A stretch of DNA of 64,000 nucleotides, taken from positions 645,283 through 709,282 of the forward strand of contig CAZQHP010000001.1 of assembly GCA_964593805.1 (NCBI GenBank), read 5' to 3'. The position numbers and the translations under genes were made by a program. Shown here piece by piece: positions 11,476 through 62,094 of this stretch (positions are counted from its first letter, which is position 1; each line of letters opens with the position of its first letter). Below the pieces are notes generated by a model. That model was not told where the DNA came from, made no database searches, and worked only from the letters and a program-made list of their open reading frames with translations. Source of the stretch: an uncultured Candidatus Saccharibacteria bacterium. Its GTDB lineage: Bacteria; Patescibacteriota; Saccharimonadia; Saccharimonadales; JBBQAJ01.

Positions 11476-11478
11476 AAA

Positions 11479-11860
11479 AGAGCCTGCAGAGGGTGAGTTC
11501 CGCCCGATGGCGGAACGCAAGGAAATCTTCCGATGAAAACTTGTTTTCAATCGCGAAGTTTCGGGGTCGCGGAACGCGACTGGGCACCGAACGTCAAAAG
11601 ACAAACAAAAAGGACTTCCAGAGGGGGTGGGCACCGCTGGAAGTCCTTTTTAGGCTCAAGACTTGCTTGAGCCAAAATTACACCCTTCAACCCACCCAGC
11701 GAAGCATCGATGTCTACGAGAGTGCCTACGGACACGTGCTTCCCGTCCAGGACGGAAATCTTGCGGACTCGCTTTGAATCACCACAGTGGCCACAAGGAC
11801 CACCATAGGGGTTAGTTAAAGGGGTTAGTTTGTCTTAGAGCCTGCTCACCCTAGAGTGAA
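11479..11860. ncRNA. hairpin-dense non-coding locus between pth and dprA; candidate small RNA(s), identity and strand unresolved
   Basis: The 572-nt gap has no credible ORF. It contains hairpins TTCCGCC-cgat-GGCGGAA, GTCGCG-gaa-CGCGAC and GGCTCAAG-acttg-CTTGAGCC, end-to-end complementarity AGGGTGAG (11490-11497) / CTCACCCT (11845-11852), and an internal bidirectional terminator. Confidence 0.3.
11612..11651. terminator. bidirectional intrinsic terminator
   Basis: GGACTTCCAG-15 nt-CTGGAAGTCC has TTTTT downstream on + and an A-run upstream, which reads as a U-run on -. Confidence 0.6.
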
Positions 11861-12047
11861 CACAAGATAAAAGTGGAGGGTAACAACTTTGTTTCTCAAG
11901 ACTCTAAAACAATCTAACAGTTCACTCCGACTGTAATGTCGGAGGTGTTAGAATAGGGTATAAGGTGCATAAATCCGCCTGGGCGGACTTAGGATTGCTA
12001 TTTTAGCAAAAACATTACATTATGTCAATACATAGAAATAACATTGT

Positions 12048-12905: not shown

Positions 12906-12909
12906 CAAG

Positions 12910-13080
12910 ATGGAAACAAAAACATACATTTGGATTGGCATAATCGTCGGCGGAATAGTCGGTGGCGCGCTAGGCGGGGCGTTAGACCACGGTAATGTTA
13001 TTGGCCTATGGGGAATACTAATGAGCGGTATTGGCTCCATAGCCGGCATATTCATAGCCTACAAACTCAGCAACTATTAA
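12910..13080 (+). CDS. small glycine-zipper membrane protein (56 aa; below the ORF-track threshold)
   Basis: Hand translation gives METKTYIWIGIIVGGIVGGALGGALDHGNVIGLWGILMSGIGSIAGIFIAYKLSNY. The ATG is 4 nt after the dprA stop, and a strong hairpin follows. Confidence 0.5.
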   Translation: METKTYIWIGIIVGGIVGGALGGALDHGNVIGLWGILMSGIGSIAGIFIAYKLSNY

Positions 13081-13139
13081 ATTCACAAAATCTCCCCCTG
13101 AAAAAGGACGGACCTTTTGCGGAGGGAGATTTTGTGAAT
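13081..13139. terminator. long perfect inverted repeat (16-bp stem with inner AAAAGG/CCTTTT stem)
   Basis: ATTCACAAAATCTCCC ... GGGAGATTTTGTGAAT lies immediately after the small membrane ORF. There is no clean U-tract. Confidence 0.45.
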
Positions 13140-13372
13140 TTGCAATTGGGAGTGTTTTGATTTAGTCTACCCATTTGCATATATAAGAATAAAGGTATAC
13201 TTAAGCGATATGGTAGGCACCCACACTATAAATATCTTTCGAGTGCGAGCCGCACAAGTGAGCAAACAAACAGAGGTACCAGGCGAACAAAGCGTATCTG
13301 TAGATACGTTGCGGAGCGGCATGCGTCTGTTTGTTGATCAGTTTGTGGCGCAGCAGAAAGGATGTTTGTAGC

Positions 13373-33646: not shown

Positions 33647-33798
33647 CCCCTTCTGAAAAACTGATTAGTATTGGCTGAGCGAAAACCTATGCGCGAGGAG
33701 TATTTACACCACAGCCAGTTTGAGCCAGACAATGCTAGTCAGGTTTTTTCAGCTGGGGTCGGTTCTTTTGCTTCTTTTCTGCCGACTCAGAAAAGAAG
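33647..33798. ncRNA. structured intergenic module resembling the 3' domain of elements A and B (copy C, weak)
   Basis: Long-range inverted repeat 33647-33668 / 33735-33758. GCGAGGAGT (33693), then GACAATG (33728), then CTTTTG plus hairpin CTTCTTTTCTG-ccgact-CAGAAAAGAAG (33771-33798), in the same order and similar spacing as in elements A and B. Confidence 0.3.
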
Positions 33799-33831
33799 TT
33801 TATAGAGCGAGCGAAGCGAGCGCAAAATGGT

Positions 33832-44135: not shown

Positions 44136-44189
44136 TGCAATAACTTTAACACCGAAAACAATGCGGCGCACGCCTGTGGCTTGCTTTCG

Positions 44190-44628
44190 CCCATACTTTC
44201 TTGTGTTGACAAGAAAGTAGGCAAAGAAACAACGCCATGGGCCGCGAAACATGATTGTCCCCATAACCAGCCAACTACCGCGCCGGGACGACAAGGCCCC
44301 CGACTTTAACTTGGGATGGTCGGGGACAAGTCCCAGCTCTATTCGGCAGTTGTCTGAAGGCGTGCATCAGTTTCTTGAATGGCGGGAACAAGCAGAGTCC
44401 CGCATATGCGGGGCGGTATTATATAATCCGCCTATGGCGGATACCTTGGTCTTGTCCGGGCTCTGGAGGTTCCTGATGATGGAGTTGTCAAAGCCACAAT
44501 TAGAGAGAGGAGTTACTGCGTAAGCAATAACGACGAGCATTGTGGTGTTTGACAATGGAGGCATCAAGAACTGGAAGTGGCTGTCGCTCTTTTTGCATAC
44601 TTTTTCTTCGATAAGAAAAAGTATGGCG
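44190..44628. ncRNA. repeated structured intergenic element, copy A (candidate novel ncRNA; strand unresolved)
   Basis: Collinear with 61252-61673. 63 of the last 64 nt are identical. It is bounded by A/U-rich hairpins at 44194-44219 and 44596-44625. Indels rule out coding. Confidence 0.5.
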
Positions 44629-44654
44629 TACAGCGGGCGAAGCGCGCGCGGAAA

Positions 44655-58555: not shown

Positions 58556-61155
58556 TATTTGCGTTTCTTGTGTTTGGCTTTGGCTTTTCGCTGGCGCTCT
58601 TGCTTGCGGGCCTTCTTTATCTTGTCTTTGTCGCGGCTTTTGGCCGCTGAAGCCACTTTTAGCGGTACGAAATCAGTTTCTTCAAACTCGTCGGCCTCCA
58701 CGATTTGATTGGCGTTGTCTATAGAACGACGAGCCGCTCTAGTAAGCTCTGTTTCTACTGGCCGATCGCTGTCTATAGGCTCAGCGCTAAATAGCGCCCG
58801 CACCACTTCGCGGCGTAGTTGGGCCTGCATTTCCTCAAACATGTGCTGTCCCTGGCGGCGATATTCCACCAGCGGATCGCGCTGGCCGACGCTAATCCAG
58901 TGAATTCCCTCGCGCATATGGTCCATGTTTTCCAAATGCTGCATCCATAAGTTATCCAAAATTTGCAAGTAAATGTCGCGCTCCACTTTGCGCATAACTT
59001 CCGGGGTAAAGGCAGTTTCGCGGCTTACATAAAGCTCCAACGCTTCGCTCTGTAGCAATTTGCCAAACTGGCTGGCTTCCGAATCAAATAGGCGGTCTAA
59101 CGTTGCGTCGTCAAACGGAAAACTTTCCGCTATCAGAGATTCGTACTGGTCAGATAACAGCATTGGTGAAGCTGCCAGGGTTTTGGCTTCATCCTCTATA
59201 AACGCCTTTATTCGTTTTTTGATATCGGCCTGCATCAGAATTTCGCGGCGCATGGCATAGGTTGCCTTGCGGTGGCGGTTCATCACGTCGTCATATTGAA
59301 CCACGTTTTTACGAGTATCAAAGTTGTAGCCTTCCACCTTTTTTTGAGCGCCTTCCAGGCTTTTGCTAATGACGCGGTTTTCAATCGGCGTTTCGTCGTC
59401 CACGCCCAGCCGGTCCATAATAGAACCAATGCGCTCGCCGCCAAAAATGCGCATCAGGTCGTCTTCTGTGCTCACGAAAAACTGCGTGACGCCGGGGTCG
59501 CCCTGGCGGCCAGACCGGCCGCGGAGCTGGTTATCAATGCGGCGGGACTCATGGCGTTCGCTTCCCAGTACAAACAGTCCGCCCAATTTTTTGACGTCTT
59601 CGTCCAGCACAATGTCCGTGCCGCGCCCGGCAATGTTGGTGGCTAGCGTCACCGCGCCCCTCTGCCCGGCTTTGGCCACAATAGCGGCTTCTCTTTCATT
59701 GTTTTTGGCATTCAACATCTGGTGCGGTACTTTGGCCTTTGTCAGCAAGCCGCTCAGAACTTCATTCTTTTCAATCGAAACCGTACCCAGCAAAACCGGC
59801 TGGCCCTTGCGGTGCAGCGCGGCGATTTCCCGCACTATGGCTTTGAACTTGCCGGCTTCGGTGCGGTATATACGGTCCGTTTTGTCGTCGCGGATCAGTT
59901 TGCGGTTAGACGGAACTTGTACTACGTCTAGCTTGTAGACCTGGTGGAATTCTTCGCTTTCGGTTTCAGCCGTACCGGTCATACCAGCCAGTTTGTCATA
60001 CAGGCGGAAATAGTTCTGGAAAGAAATAGTTGCCAGCGTCATGGACTCTTCCTGGACCTCTACGCCTTCTTTGGCCTCAATTGCCTGGTGCAAACCTTCG
60101 TTGTAGCGGCGGCCTTTGAGCAAGCGGCCCGTGAAATCATCCACAATCACAACCTCGCCGTCTGACGTTACGACGTAATCTTTATCACGGTGAAACAAGG
60201 CCTGGGCCTTTAGGGCCTGCTCTAAGTGATAAATTGTTCGGATGTTGTCCGTGCCGTACAAGCTGGTGATGCCCAGGATTTTTTCTACGTGTTCAACACC
60301 TCCGTTAGTGAGCACCACGGCTTTGCGTTTTTCGTCAGTTTCGTAATCTTCGTCTTTTTTAAGCTGGCGTGTGACTTTAGCAAACTGGGCGTAAGCGGTG
60401 CCGCTGGTAACACTTGGGGCGGAGATGATAAGTGGCGTGCGGGCTTCGTCTATCAATATAGAGTCTACTTCATCCACAATTGCATAGTGCAATTCGCGCT
60501 GGCGCAGCTGGTCAGTTTCGCGGACCATGTTGTCGCGCAGATAGTCAAAGCCAAATTCATTGTTTGTCCCGTACGTGATATCCGCGCCGTACGCTTCCTG
60601 GCGCGTGCAAGGTTTCAGGTGCCACAAGCGCGGATCGTCATGGCTTTTGTCTTCAAATTTCGGGTCATATATATAAGATTCTTCGGCGATGATAACGCCT
60701 GTGGTCAAACCCAAGAAACTATAGATTTGGCCCATCCAGCCAGCGTCGCGCCGCGCCAAATAATCGTTCACTGTCACTACGTGCACGCCCTTGCCCGTTA
60801 GTCCGTTCAAATAGACAGCCAGGGTTGCCACTAAAGTCTTGCCCTCGCCCGTTTTCATTTCGGCAACCTTGCCTTCGTGCAAAACCATGCCGCCAATCAG
60901 CTGGACATCAAAGTGCCGCTGGCCCAGCGTACGGCGGGCGGCTTCGCGCGCCACGGCAAATGCGTCGGGTAAAATTTTGTCCAAACTTTCTTTTTCTAAA
61001 CGCTCTTTCAGCTTAGCGGTCTGCTCTTTGAGCTGTTTGTCCGGCATTTTTTTATACTTTGGCTCCAACGCATTGACGTCATGAACTCGCCGCCGCATGC
61101 GCCGCAGGGTTTTAGCTTGCGGGTCACCTAGAACTTTCTTAAATACTTTATTCAC
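58555..61155 (-). CDS. secA: preprotein translocase ATPase SecA
   Basis: DEAD-like motor (MKTGEGKTL, DEVDS), PPXD, HSD/HWD, basic C-terminus. GTG start with GGGAG Shine-Dalgarno and TACAAT -10. Confidence 0.95.
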   Translation of the reverse strand: MNKVFKKVLGDPQAKTLRRMRRRVHDVNALEPKYKKMPDKQLKEQTAKLKERLEKESLDKILPDAFAVAREAARRTLGQRHFDVQLIGGMVLHEGKVAEMKTGEGKTLVATLAVYLNGLTGKGVHVVTVNDYLARRDAGWMGQIYSFLGLTTGVIIAEESYIYDPKFEDKSHDDPRLWHLKPCTRQEAYGADITYGTNNEFGFDYLRDNMVRETDQLRQRELHYAIVDEVDSILIDEARTPLIISAPSVTSGTAYAQFAKVTRQLKKDEDYETDEKRKAVVLTNGGVEHVEKILGITSLYGTDNIRTIYHLEQALKAQALFHRDKDYVVTSDGEVVIVDDFTGRLLKGRRYNEGLHQAIEAKEGVEVQEESMTLATISFQNYFRLYDKLAGMTGTAETESEEFHQVYKLDVVQVPSNRKLIRDDKTDRIYRTEAGKFKAIVREIAALHRKGQPVLLGTVSIEKNEVLSGLLTKAKVPHQMLNAKNNEREAAIVAKAGQRGAVTLATNIAGRGTDIVLDEDVKKLGGLFVLGSERHESRRIDNQLRGRSGRQGDPGVTQFFVSTEDDLMRIFGGERIGSIMDRLGVDDETPIENRVISKSLEGAQKKVEGYNFDTRKNVVQYDDVMNRHRKATYAMRREILMQADIKKRIKAFIEDEAKTLAASPMLLSDQYESLIAESFPFDDATLDRLFDSEASQFGKLLQSEALELYVSRETAFTPEVMRKVERDIYLQILDNLWMQHLENMDHMREGIHWISVGQRDPLVEYRRQGQHMFEEMQAQLRREVVRALFSAEPIDSDRPVETELTRAARRSIDNANQIVEADEFEETDFVPLKVASAAKSRDKDKIKKARKQERQRKAKAKHKKRK

Positions 61156-61251
61156 TAAAAGCTAACTCCCTCTGATACATGGTCAATCAACAATGCTAGA
61201 TATTGTACCCCATCAGAGGTGCTTCACGCCAGGTAATTTTCCCAACAACTG

Positions 61252-61673
61252 CTCCTTTCTTTTCTGGTCAGCAGAAAAGAAACAAAAGAACTGACGGATG
61301 ACATCAAAACACTATTGTCTCCAGAACCAGCACCTGCCCGCGCCGACAGAATAGCGCGTTCCAGTACTTCAGATTTCTCACCGTATGCTGTCGGCTCGAC
61401 TCGGTCAGGAACTGACTGGAGACATCGGTTTTGCTGAATCCGACCAACCGCCATGGTCTGAAGTATTTGTATACAAGTGCTGTGCACTTGACCGTGGAGG
61501 TTAGCCAGGCTCTGGAAGTTCCTGAGGAACGGAATGTCAAAACGACCTTTAGAGCGAGGAGTCCGCCGCGGCGGATGACGAGCATGGTCATTTTGACAAT
61601 GGAGTTCTTCAAGAACTGGAAGTGGCTGTCGCTCTTTTTGCATACTTTTTCTTCGACAAGAAAAAGTATGGCG
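61252..61673. ncRNA. repeated structured intergenic element, copy B (candidate novel ncRNA; strand unresolved)
   Basis: Collinear with 44190-44628. Hairpins at 61256-61282 and 61641-61670; closing helix AGAGCGA (61551) / TCGCTCT (61629). Confidence 0.5.
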
Positions 61674-61725
61674 GGAAATCCGCCATGGCGGATGCCGAAA
61701 CTGTTTTGAACAATAAAATGTCTGG

Positions 61726-62094
61726 TTATGCGTCGTGTTTGGTACGGCGCAGCTTGCTGATTAGGCGGTGACGCAACTGCGGGCTGCCATGTTTCATTTT
61801 GTATTTTTTGATCTGGTTTTTAAGCTTGGCTTCTACAATGTCGACCGCGGCGTACATGTTTATGGTTGCTTCCTTGGTTGTTAGTTTGTCGTGCGGCAAA
61901 TGCAGCACAACTTCACAAACGTTTTCTTTTTTGGCTTTAATTTTCACTTCTTTTAAGAAAACTTCCAGATGCGCTGACCGACGGGCGTGTTTAGGGATGT
62001 ATTTATCAAGTTTTCCGAGTTTTTTGGTTACATACGCCTTCAGTTTGCTGTCAACATCAAAATGAACTCCGTTAATCTCAAGCTTATTTATCAT
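61726..62094 (-). CDS. hpf: ribosome hibernation promoting factor (short HPF/RaiA type)
   Basis: S30AE fold pattern (VTKKLGKLDKY ... LEVFLKE ... DMYAAVD-like). Confidence 0.88.
   Translation of the reverse strand: MINKLEINGVHFDVDSKLKAYVTKKLGKLDKYIPKHARRSAHLEVFLKEVKIKAKKENVCEVVLHLPHDKLTTKEATINMYAAVDIVEAKLKNQIKKYKMKHGSPQLRHRLISKLRRTKHDA

Follow-up and report, generated by a model that had tools for sequence, protein, structure and literature searches.

A putative structured non-coding RNA family in intergenic spacers of Saccharimonadales

The spacer between the hpf and secA genes of an uncultured Candidatus Saccharibacteria bacterium (contig CAZQHP010000001.1, positions 645,283 to 709,282) contains a highly structured non-coding element, here called copy B, a second copy of which (copy A) also lies between two minus-strand genes in the same 64 kb stretch of DNA, referred to below as the window. 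The element is a previously undescribed, non-coding element of approximately 0.5 kb from the Saccharimonadales, members of the candidate phyla radiation (CPR). The window belongs to a metagenomic contig of 776,748 bp, and the source names given for homologues of hpf and xseA place it in the Saccharimonadales/Patescibacteria. Judged from its predicted fold, covariation and conservation, copy B is plausibly a member of a clade-restricted, putative family of structured non-coding RNAs. A preliminary description of this DNA had offered the choice between an independent small-RNA gene and a regulatory spacer RNA; a structured RNA is indeed the best reading of the element, though an unproven one.

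The hpf-secA element and its module

Two covariance models were used, R1, which was built from copies A and B, and a second model, R2; E-values from the shortened calibration are rough. A third copy (C), absent from the preliminary description, turned up with R1. By Pfam the genes flanking copy B are hpf (Ribosomal_S30AE) and secA. The distance from the copy to the stop codon of hpf (61726-61728) is 52 nt and that to the GTG of secA (61153-61155) is 97 nt, in agreement with the distances of about 50 and 100 nt reported at the outset, and its end hairpins are found at 61256-61282 and 61641-61670. Also as reported, secA retains its own promoter, TACAAT (complement of 61202-61207), and Shine-Dalgarno sequence, GGGAG (complement of 61166-61170), both located after copy B; the GGTACAATAT at the secA -10 site is conserved in the relatives L121, L125 and L126. 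The copy B segment corresponds to the part that differs from L125, with homology to L125 picking up again at TTGTTGGGAAAATTACC. The features of the spacer are as follows.

61215-61725, minus strand: copy B in full, outer flanks included, beginning right after the stop codon of hpf and ending right before the -10 box of secA
61668-61692, minus strand: three-part GGCGG/CCGCC/GGCGG string, comprising the palindrome UCCGCCAUGGCGGA and the overlapping hairpin AUGGCGG-AUUUC-CCGCCAU
61506-61672, minus strand: core module of type I (P1, linker, P2 and flanking pairs; R2 178.7 bits, E 1e-41)
61641-61670, minus strand: P1, a 13-bp A/U-rich hairpin, CAUACUUUUUCUU-GUCG-AAGAAAAAGUAUG
61622-61640, minus strand: A-rich linker CAAAAAGAG and the tail CGAC (61628-61631), which is complementary to the P1 loop GUCG and predicted to form an H-type pseudoknot with it
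61518-61616, minus strand: P2, a long hairpin with P2a (GUUCUUGA/UCAGGAAC), which holds a near-invariant U.G pair, and the covarying P2b
61562-61575, minus strand: P2c, the apical GC hairpin UCCGCCGCGGCGGA; UCCGCC-N-GGCGGA is also present here in L136 and L138
61296-61505, minus strand: centre and 3' arm with P3 (CCUCCACGGUC...GACCAUGGCGG) and the long P4 hairpin, which mirrors the module in diverged form
61254-61295, plus strand: inverted end unit, consisting of the hairpin UUUCUUUUCUG-GUCAG-CAGAAAAGAAA, then CAAAAGAA, then the loop-complementary CUGAC
61153-61214, minus strand: TACAAT, GGGAG and GTG start of secA, outside the element

Copies A and B do share the architecture attributed to them earlier: a block of 174 nt is 81% identical and includes an identical run of 48 nt, while outside this block the hairpin layout is equal and 19 of the 47 predicted pairs are altered on both sides. 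The building block of the family is a module of about 185 nt, with identities across the family ranging from 47 to 86%. It begins with P1, an A/U-rich hairpin of 10-13 bp with a loop of 4-6 nt, which is followed by an A-rich linker reading CAAAAAGA and by a short tail. The long P2 hairpin is composed of P2a, which is nearly invariant, P2b, which covaries, and a variable apical hairpin, P2c, that is often UCCGCC-N-GGCGGA. The unpaired strands of P2 are pyrimidine-rich and strongly conserved (CUUCCA, ACUCCAUUG, CCAUGCUCGUCA, GCUCCUCGCUCUAAUGG and UCCAGAGCC); the conserved P2 loops of copy B read CUCCAUUG, CCAUGCUCGUCA and ACUCCUCGCUCUAA. The 3' end of the module is marked by UAAGACCAUGG, followed in most copies by a GC hairpin and a U/A-rich run, and the motif ACUYCCA occurs four times in each arm.

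The pair statistics rest on eight modules from five genomes in an alignment fitted to the model. The cells pair in 93% of cases as modelled compared to 36-48% when the partners are slid, and 24 of the 45 modelled pairs are altered on both sides. The covariation score of 0.397 compares to 0.126 in shuffles, none of 500 being as high. The P1 helix is 97% paired across the eight modules and seven of its 13 pairs are altered on both sides. Covarying helices, which serve as the test for a structured RNA, are thus present in this set of eight quasi-palindromic sequences with a model-fitted alignment. Relative to shuffled sequences, the folding energies correspond to z = -6.9 for copy B and z = -8.4 for copy A.

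The ends show a complementarity between the P1 loop and a tail 6-9 nt downstream of the hairpin, which is found in 13 of 14 end units and falls into five covarying classes (GUCG/CGAC, GUCGG/CCGAC, GUCAG/CUGAC, GUUG/CAAC and GCCA/UGGC). From this covariation we infer that loop and tail may form an H-type pseudoknot whose third loop is A-rich. A long-range pairing between a tail AGAGCGA and a loop UCGCUCU was rejected as it is absent from the L135 tail, whose loop-tail pairing covaries, and a pairing between outer flank and tail, which would compete with the pseudoknot, was dropped because it shows no covariation in L135.

The far end of each element is matched by the models on the opposite strand (44190-44246, 61254-61330, L135 9892-9946 and L136 9890-9946; the match to the inverted end of copy B, on the plus strand, scores 20.4 bits with R2), and the ends of the element are therefore inverted repeats of 50-90 nt that comprise the GC-rich flank, P1 and the tail. 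The two arms usually lie tail-to-tail with their outer flanks as inverted repeats, and the element is therefore a quasi-palindrome of 450-590 nt, which fills its spacer from 5-55 nt after the upstream stop codon up to the promoter of the next gene. L138 has two intact modules as its arms, arranged tail-to-tail (165 and 149 bits), and its outer repeats are nearly perfect. In L133 it is the reversed arm that is the intact type I module, and a type II module resembling copy C makes up the forward arm. The second arm of A, B, L135 and L136 is a mirror image that has diverged and has a conserved motif of its own, CGCCAUUCAAGAAACUGAUG. The 3' arm of copy B retains AUUCA-N-AAAC-N-GAUG and, by comparison with the reverse arm of L138, appears to be homologous to an inverted module; the 3' arm of copy A also shows compensatory change between orthologues. 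One unit of L126 combines the flank, P1 and loop-tail pairing of the family with a third kind of body (type III). It lies in the spacer between CHAP and CtpB (L126 19546-19987), which measures 442 nt compared to 109 nt in the window and also holds two small inverted repeats, GTCATTC...GAATCC.

In another sample (SRR8863434), a contig of the same organism (L002, 3365-3447) stops 26 nt after entering the conserved run of copy B, as it would at a repeat-induced assembly break.

Copies A and C and the conservation of the element among relatives

The remaining copies of the window are found at two further loci, copy A between the stop codon of an LPG_synthase_TM gene upstream and xseA and xseB downstream (all by Pfam), and copy C between the stop codon of an RNase H gene and a glyoxalase promoter.

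44137-44654, minus strand: copy A, the whole element, between the stop of the LPG_synthase_TM gene and the xseA start
44457-44627, minus strand: core module of copy A (R2 183.3 bits)
44412-44441, minus strand: centre of copy A, with the P3 hairpin AUCCGCC-AUA-GGCGGAU, an A/U-rich spacer and an extra CCGCC that completes the three-part string
44190-44246, plus strand: inverted end unit of copy A, whose hairpin has the loop GUUG and whose tail reads CAAC (R2 30.7 bits)
33647-33801, minus strand: copy C, a solo, shorter module of type II (R1 20.9 bits; R2 32.7 bits, E 3e-6), with P1 at 33771-33798, loop AGUCGG and tail CCGAC

Homologues were found through synteny at the hpf-secA and xseA sites of relatives, and the question raised earlier of whether the element keeps its position has a different answer at each. 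Orthologues of copy A are present in the spacer between the LPG synthase gene and xseA in L135, L136, L138 and L133 (R2 scores of 188, 201, 165+149 and 59 bits, respectively), whereas at the hpf-secA site none of four relatives carries the element, which is not bound to hpf/secA. Since the element is found at the xseA site of four relatives, copy A is old and vertically inherited. It is absent from L137, where xseA abuts another gene, and in L136 the gene upstream is directed away from the element. In approximately 200 kb of relatives' DNA, copies are found at the xseA site only, plus the one unit in L126.

Over about 500 nt copy A is 86% identical to its orthologue in L136 and 76% to that in L135, compared to 50% (L136) and 43% (L135) at the four-fold sites of xseA, which are near saturation, and to 81% (L136) and 86% (L135) at xseA codon positions 1+2. 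As the element lies far above the identity of four-fold sites, both arms of copy A are under purifying selection at a fixed locus, which is hard to reconcile with a merely decaying selfish insertion. The module of copy B is 86% identical to the copy A module of L136 and 83% to that of the window, and is thus as near to either as these two are to each other.

Among relatives the spacer between hpf and secA is a hot spot of unrelated inserts. In L121, whose hpf is 89% identical, it measures 109 nt and contains the secA promoter only; in L125 (10370-10580) it holds about 200 nt of unrelated filler, in L126 (10400-11290) a long inverted repeat (GTCATTCCCGCGAAGGCGGGAATCCAG...) with a 156-aa open reading frame (ORF), and in L176 (10370-13200) a RelB/YafQ toxin-antitoxin pair together with two ORFs. 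The L125 filler was considered as a decayed member of the family and rejected, as it has no match to the models and no loop-tail complementarity, and folds with a z of only -2.0. From these comparisons copy B is lineage-specific, or was lost elsewhere. A heliorhodopsin gene lies a few kb upstream of hpf in three of these relatives (L121 4750-5670, L125 5071-5955 and L176 2387-2821).

Accessory sequences accompany some of the orthologues at the xseA site. In L138 (8786-9947) the element is followed by a truncated duplicate of the xseA 5' end (MEMVFTPTDFVAVVNQTLDYA-stop), beyond which a strong promoter and a 345-aa ORF without Pfam or PADLOC match precede the intact xseA; this arrangement looks like an insertion that duplicated the xseA start. 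In L133 (9355-9813, minus strand) a 152-aa ORF with a P-loop (AFPGCGKS), likewise without match in Pfam or PADLOC, lies between the arms. The xseA gene itself is preceded by TGTTAAAGT, which resembles an extended -10 box and is conserved 8-10 nt before the ATG (window 44136-44170; L133, L135 and L136). It has no Shine-Dalgarno sequence and its mRNA, judged from these sequences, is probably leaderless; the public xseA gene call (423 aa) is too long and wrongly runs into copy A.

Two other spacers of the window contain hairpins. The 572 nt between pth and dprA (11476-12047) contain no called gene but strong hairpins, among them GGACTTCCAG...CTGGAAGTCC at 11603-11650, with A5 and T5 on its flanks, and UCCGCC-N-GGCGGA hairpins at 11499 and 11974, without a match in Rfam. 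A gap of 425 nt upstream of topA (12906-13330) holds a long hairpin at about 13070-13152, for which Rfam shows microRNA-like noise only.

The three-part string, coding potential and searches

The preliminary description had drawn attention to a string just outside a terminal hairpin of copy B in which two GGCGG segments compete for one CCGCC, and had taken it as a sign of an RNA switch. The string is present, although its start is 2 nt away from the 61672 first given and its real span is 61670-61692. A three-part string is also found in copy A as was claimed (44412-44440/1), but the two sites are non-homologous, since that of B lies outside the first hairpin and that of A in the centre of the element. 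The pattern GGCGG-N0-20-CCGCC-N0-20-GGCGG occurs exactly twice in the 64 kb, both times inside copies A and B, compared to a shuffled expectation of 0.13, and a count of two is reached by one of 100 shuffles. In copy B the palindrome CCGCCAUGGCGG overlaps the hairpin AUGGCGG-AUUUC-CCGCCAU, which is followed by ACUUUUUCUU and is the favoured local fold (-11.7 kcal/mol versus -8.1 for the competing palindrome). In copy A neither the minimum free energy fold nor its near-optimal alternatives ever contain the alternative pairing. None of the homologous elements in L133, L135, L136 and L138 contains the exact pattern. The orthologues of copy A keep the AUCCGCC-N3-GGCGGAU hairpin only, the third CCGCC segment being missing in L135 and L136, and a looser B-like arrangement, UCCGC..GCGGA..UCGCC, is found once more, in L136. 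The alternative pairings are thus essentially unconserved in homologues, which the preliminary description had itself named as grounds for giving up the switch. The string is a by-product of a GC clamp hairpin, UCCGCC-N-GGCGGA, that is used at three places: with a loop of N2-5 it is located before P1 (B and L136), at the apex of P2 (B, L136 and L138) and after the module (A, L135, L136 and L138).

The hairpin at 61668-61686 in copy B also fits the pattern of an intrinsic terminator: it lies 35 nt past hpf, has seven pairs, of which five are G-C, and is followed by ACUUUUUCUU; the U-rich run after it (61658-61667) is the 5' arm of P1. A scan for this pattern returned 36 matches in comparison with 28 +/- 5.5 in shuffles and, as the scan has low specificity in this genome, the hairpin is labelled terminator-like and no more.

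The gene caller of the source assembly annotates a 139-aa ORF in copy B (61224-61643, minus strand), for which the sole match among 5.8e9 proteins is the ORF itself. Indels of 1 nt separate A and B inside their conserved block, small ORFs shift frame or lose their start codon between copies, and in six-frame ORF tables of seven elements, covering both strands, no frame, start codon or peptide recurs in every one. The lack of a homologue of the 139-aa ORF, the 1-nt indels and the missing common frame together show that the element is non-coding, and the 139-aa gene annotated in the public assembly is a spurious call. A type I toxin-antitoxin locus was rejected since no small hydrophobic ORF is conserved in all copies (seven elements, six frames). 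So was a retron non-coding RNA, as no reverse transcriptase adjoins the copies, whose neighbours are hpf/secA, LPG_synthase_TM/xseA and RNase H/glyoxalase. Pfam and PADLOC searches on the ORFs in or beside the elements of relatives gave no match and no transposase.

The Rfam 15 covariance models, at gathering score, report a single tRNA in the whole window and nothing over copies A or B, and at E <= 10 only microRNA noise over these copies; the families without a match to the element include raiA, OLE, ROOL, GOLLD, HEARO, 6S, SRP, tmRNA and RNase P. BLAST searches of phage and plasmid sequences recovered no homologue of the element. Of two scans of viral sequences, one gave no match and the other 37 gapped-pattern matches, none of which was confirmed by covariance model. 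A scan of genome contigs with the 18-mer CAGCCACTTCCAGTTCTT matched more than 118 unrelated genomes (Oscillospiraceae, Acidobacteriota), by BLAST chance or coding matches, where the 18-mer is presumably part of a conserved coding sequence unrelated to the element. A metagenome scan with a 21-mer gave three chance matches, all in coding DNA. Within the literature searched in full text for non-coding RNA, structured RNA or inverted repeats of Saccharibacteria or Patescibacteria, no description of the element was found.

Possible roles, alternatives and known systems

If the element acts as RNA, transcripts of the upstream gene may run on into it, or transcription may begin at an A/T-rich box immediately beyond its flank; A/T-rich -10-like boxes are found 37-58 nt upstream of P1 in most copies, such boxes being common. 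The transcript would fold arm by arm, the loop-tail pairing would give rise to an H-type pseudoknot at each end, and the outer repeats would then zip into a closing helix, resulting in a compact, nuclease-resistant RNA. A partner, which may be a protein or a purine-rich, Shine-Dalgarno-like RNA, could dock on the invariant loops, and the element might act, for example, by sequestering a Shine-Dalgarno-like RNA or a dimeric RNA-binding protein. Two observations bear on the strand. The U.G pair in the middle of P2a is kept in seven of eight modules, and a second pair alternates between A-U and G.U. In addition, the arm that stands alone or is better conserved is oriented like the flanking genes in each of four independent cases, namely the A lineage, B, C and the unit of L126. 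Both slightly favour the sense strand of the module. Extended in this way to a large (about 0.5 kb), quasi-palindromic and pseudoknot-capped class of RNA, specific to Saccharimonadales, selected like neighbouring proteins and acting on a partner through its loops, the proposal is put forward tentatively, somewhat short of even confidence.

Several points weigh against a structured RNA. The sample is small, comprising eight modules in an alignment fitted to the model, and templated mutation in quasi-palindromes can yield changes that look compensatory without selection. The opposite strands fold nearly as well (z = -6.4 and -5.6), the fold energies of both strands are nearly equal, and G.U and A.C cells are balanced (13 versus 11). 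A promoter scan found no consensus sigma-70 promoter in or beside A or B, and the terminator-like hairpin of copy B would end hpf transcripts inside P1. Intact modules lie in both orientations relative to their neighbours (L133 and L138), as expected of mobile DNA, and the same expectation is borne out by the long inverted-repeat ends and by a B site that is empty in close relatives. The partner and function of the element are, moreover, pure inference.

In an alternative reading the element is a non-autonomous mobile or recombination element acting as folded single-stranded DNA, comparable to miniature inverted-repeat transposable elements (MITEs), REPINs or HUH ends. Its inverted ends of about 50-90 nt (GC flank, hairpin and loop-complementary tail) would be recognised by an enzyme encoded elsewhere, its bodies would be passengers or subterminal binding sites, and B and C would be recent insertions; the hairpin and complementary-tail ends could, in a more unusual variant, be the sites of an undescribed single-strand DNA recombinase that draws its specificity from the loop-tail pairing. 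Inverted-repeat ends are found in A, B, L135, L136 and L138, one end unit flanks three bodies (types I, II and III), and the B site is empty or otherwise filled in L121, L125, L126 and L176, a presence/absence polymorphism. The copies are moreover scattered over three loci in 64 kb, the repeat interrupts a contig from a second sample, accessory genes lie in or beside the element in L133, L136 and L138, and ACUYCCA recurs fourfold in each arm. However, conservation of the orthologous copies greatly exceeds that of neutral sites over their full length, which is unexpected for a fixed non-autonomous insertion, the copies are 50-86% identical rather than near-identical, and their distribution in the relatives' DNA is confined to the xseA site and the one L126 unit. 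No target-site duplication was found at the borders of B, A or L138, where there is no exact empty site to fix the ends; no transposase or HUH gene adjoins any copy, and the viral, phage and plasmid collections hold no match. Mobile DNA is regarded as an unlikely explanation, but it is the main alternative. An improbable one is a passive transcript boundary, that is a stack of hairpins in the 3' untranslated region that terminates or insulates transcription and protects the mRNA 3' end, and does nothing more. It would account for the position of every copy shortly past a stop codon and right before the next promoter, for the terminator-like hairpin after hpf and for the GC hairpins that flank a U/A-rich spacer in the centres of the elements, but leaves unexplained the invariant loops and an identity of 76-86% over 500 nt. 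In addition, the hpf-secA junction of close relatives works with only 109 nt, terminator-like matches are barely above shuffles, and the upstream gene of L136 faces away from the element.

A ligand- or protein-responsive switch built on the GGCGG/CCGCC/GGCGG competition has been largely refuted by the comparison of homologues and is now highly improbable. The enrichment of the pattern in the window, where it is confined to A and B, the mutual exclusion of the two helices in B and the looser version in L136 speak for it. They are set against the absence of the exact pattern from all four homologous elements, the non-homologous positions in A and B and the missing third segment in the orthologues of A, to which are added downstream genes that are unrelated (secA, xseA and a glyoxalase-family gene) and the lack of any riboswitch family match in Rfam. 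A small protein, be it the 139-aa ORF or a type I toxin-like peptide, is close to negligible as an explanation: the gene call in the source assembly and a hydrophobic frame of 36-65 aa in copy A would be in its favour, but the ORF has no homologue, the indels between copies are not multiples of three, and no frame, start or peptide is common to all copies on either strand.

The enterobacterial ERIC/IRU, the Correia elements of Neisseria and bcr1 of Bacillus cereus are co-transcribed, intergenic, imperfect palindromes that fold as RNA. Like these, the element is intergenic and imperfectly palindromic, has inverted ends, varies in presence between relatives, occurs in either orientation and is predicted to form long hairpins within transcripts. 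Unlike them it is three to five times longer and has a 185-nt module whose loops are invariant and whose stems covary, loop-tail pairing at its ends, no target-site duplication that could be found, and one locus conserved across species far above the neutral rate. REP/BIME sequences and REPIN doublets are mobilised by RAYT, a HUH Y1 transposase. The element shares with them hairpin units that are single or arranged as inverted doublets, vertically inherited and dispersed in intergenic spacers, but its unit is about 185 nt compared to 20-40 nt, its hairpins are A/U-rich rather than GC-rich, few copies are seen, and no RAYT-like gene lies near any copy at the loci examined. The ends of IS200/IS605 transposons and of their PATE derivatives also have subterminal hairpins and a short pairing, changing in step, between a tetranucleotide near the hairpin and a site close by. 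In IS200/IS605, however, the left and right hairpins are on one strand and not inverted, and the guide is located 5' of the hairpin foot and not in the loop. The ends described here are inverted, no tnpA or tnpB lies beside the copies, and there is no match to omega-RNA/HEARO. Bacterial intergenic repeats have been reviewed in general terms (PMC3184786). The resemblance to intrinsic terminators, namely AUGGCGG-AUUUC-CCGCCAU with ACUUUUUCUU in copy B and central GC hairpins that are followed by U/A-rich runs, covers only about 30 nt of a 500-nt element.

In its size of several hundred nt, its many covarying helices, pseudoknot-type contacts and conserved unpaired nucleotides, as well as in its unknown partners and narrow phylogenetic range, the element is reminiscent of OLE, ROOL, GOLLD, the raiA motif and HEARO. 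It differs from them in that it matches none in sequence or structure (gathering score or E <= 10) and is known from sequence alone, and none of these RNAs is a quasi-palindrome with inverted ends.

The genomes of CPR/Patescibacteria are tiny and contain very little non-coding DNA, and to our knowledge almost nothing is known of their regulatory or structural RNAs. An element that is conserved above synonymous sites, at a level like that of codon positions 1+2 of the neighbouring gene, and that shows dozens of covarying pairs, very likely has some function. As a DNA element it would, through its ends, define a new logic of recognition guided by hairpins. As an RNA it would add to the few large bacterial RNAs whose function is unknown, and would come with a ready covariance model and a structural hypothesis of pseudoknot-capped arms and symmetric internal loops.

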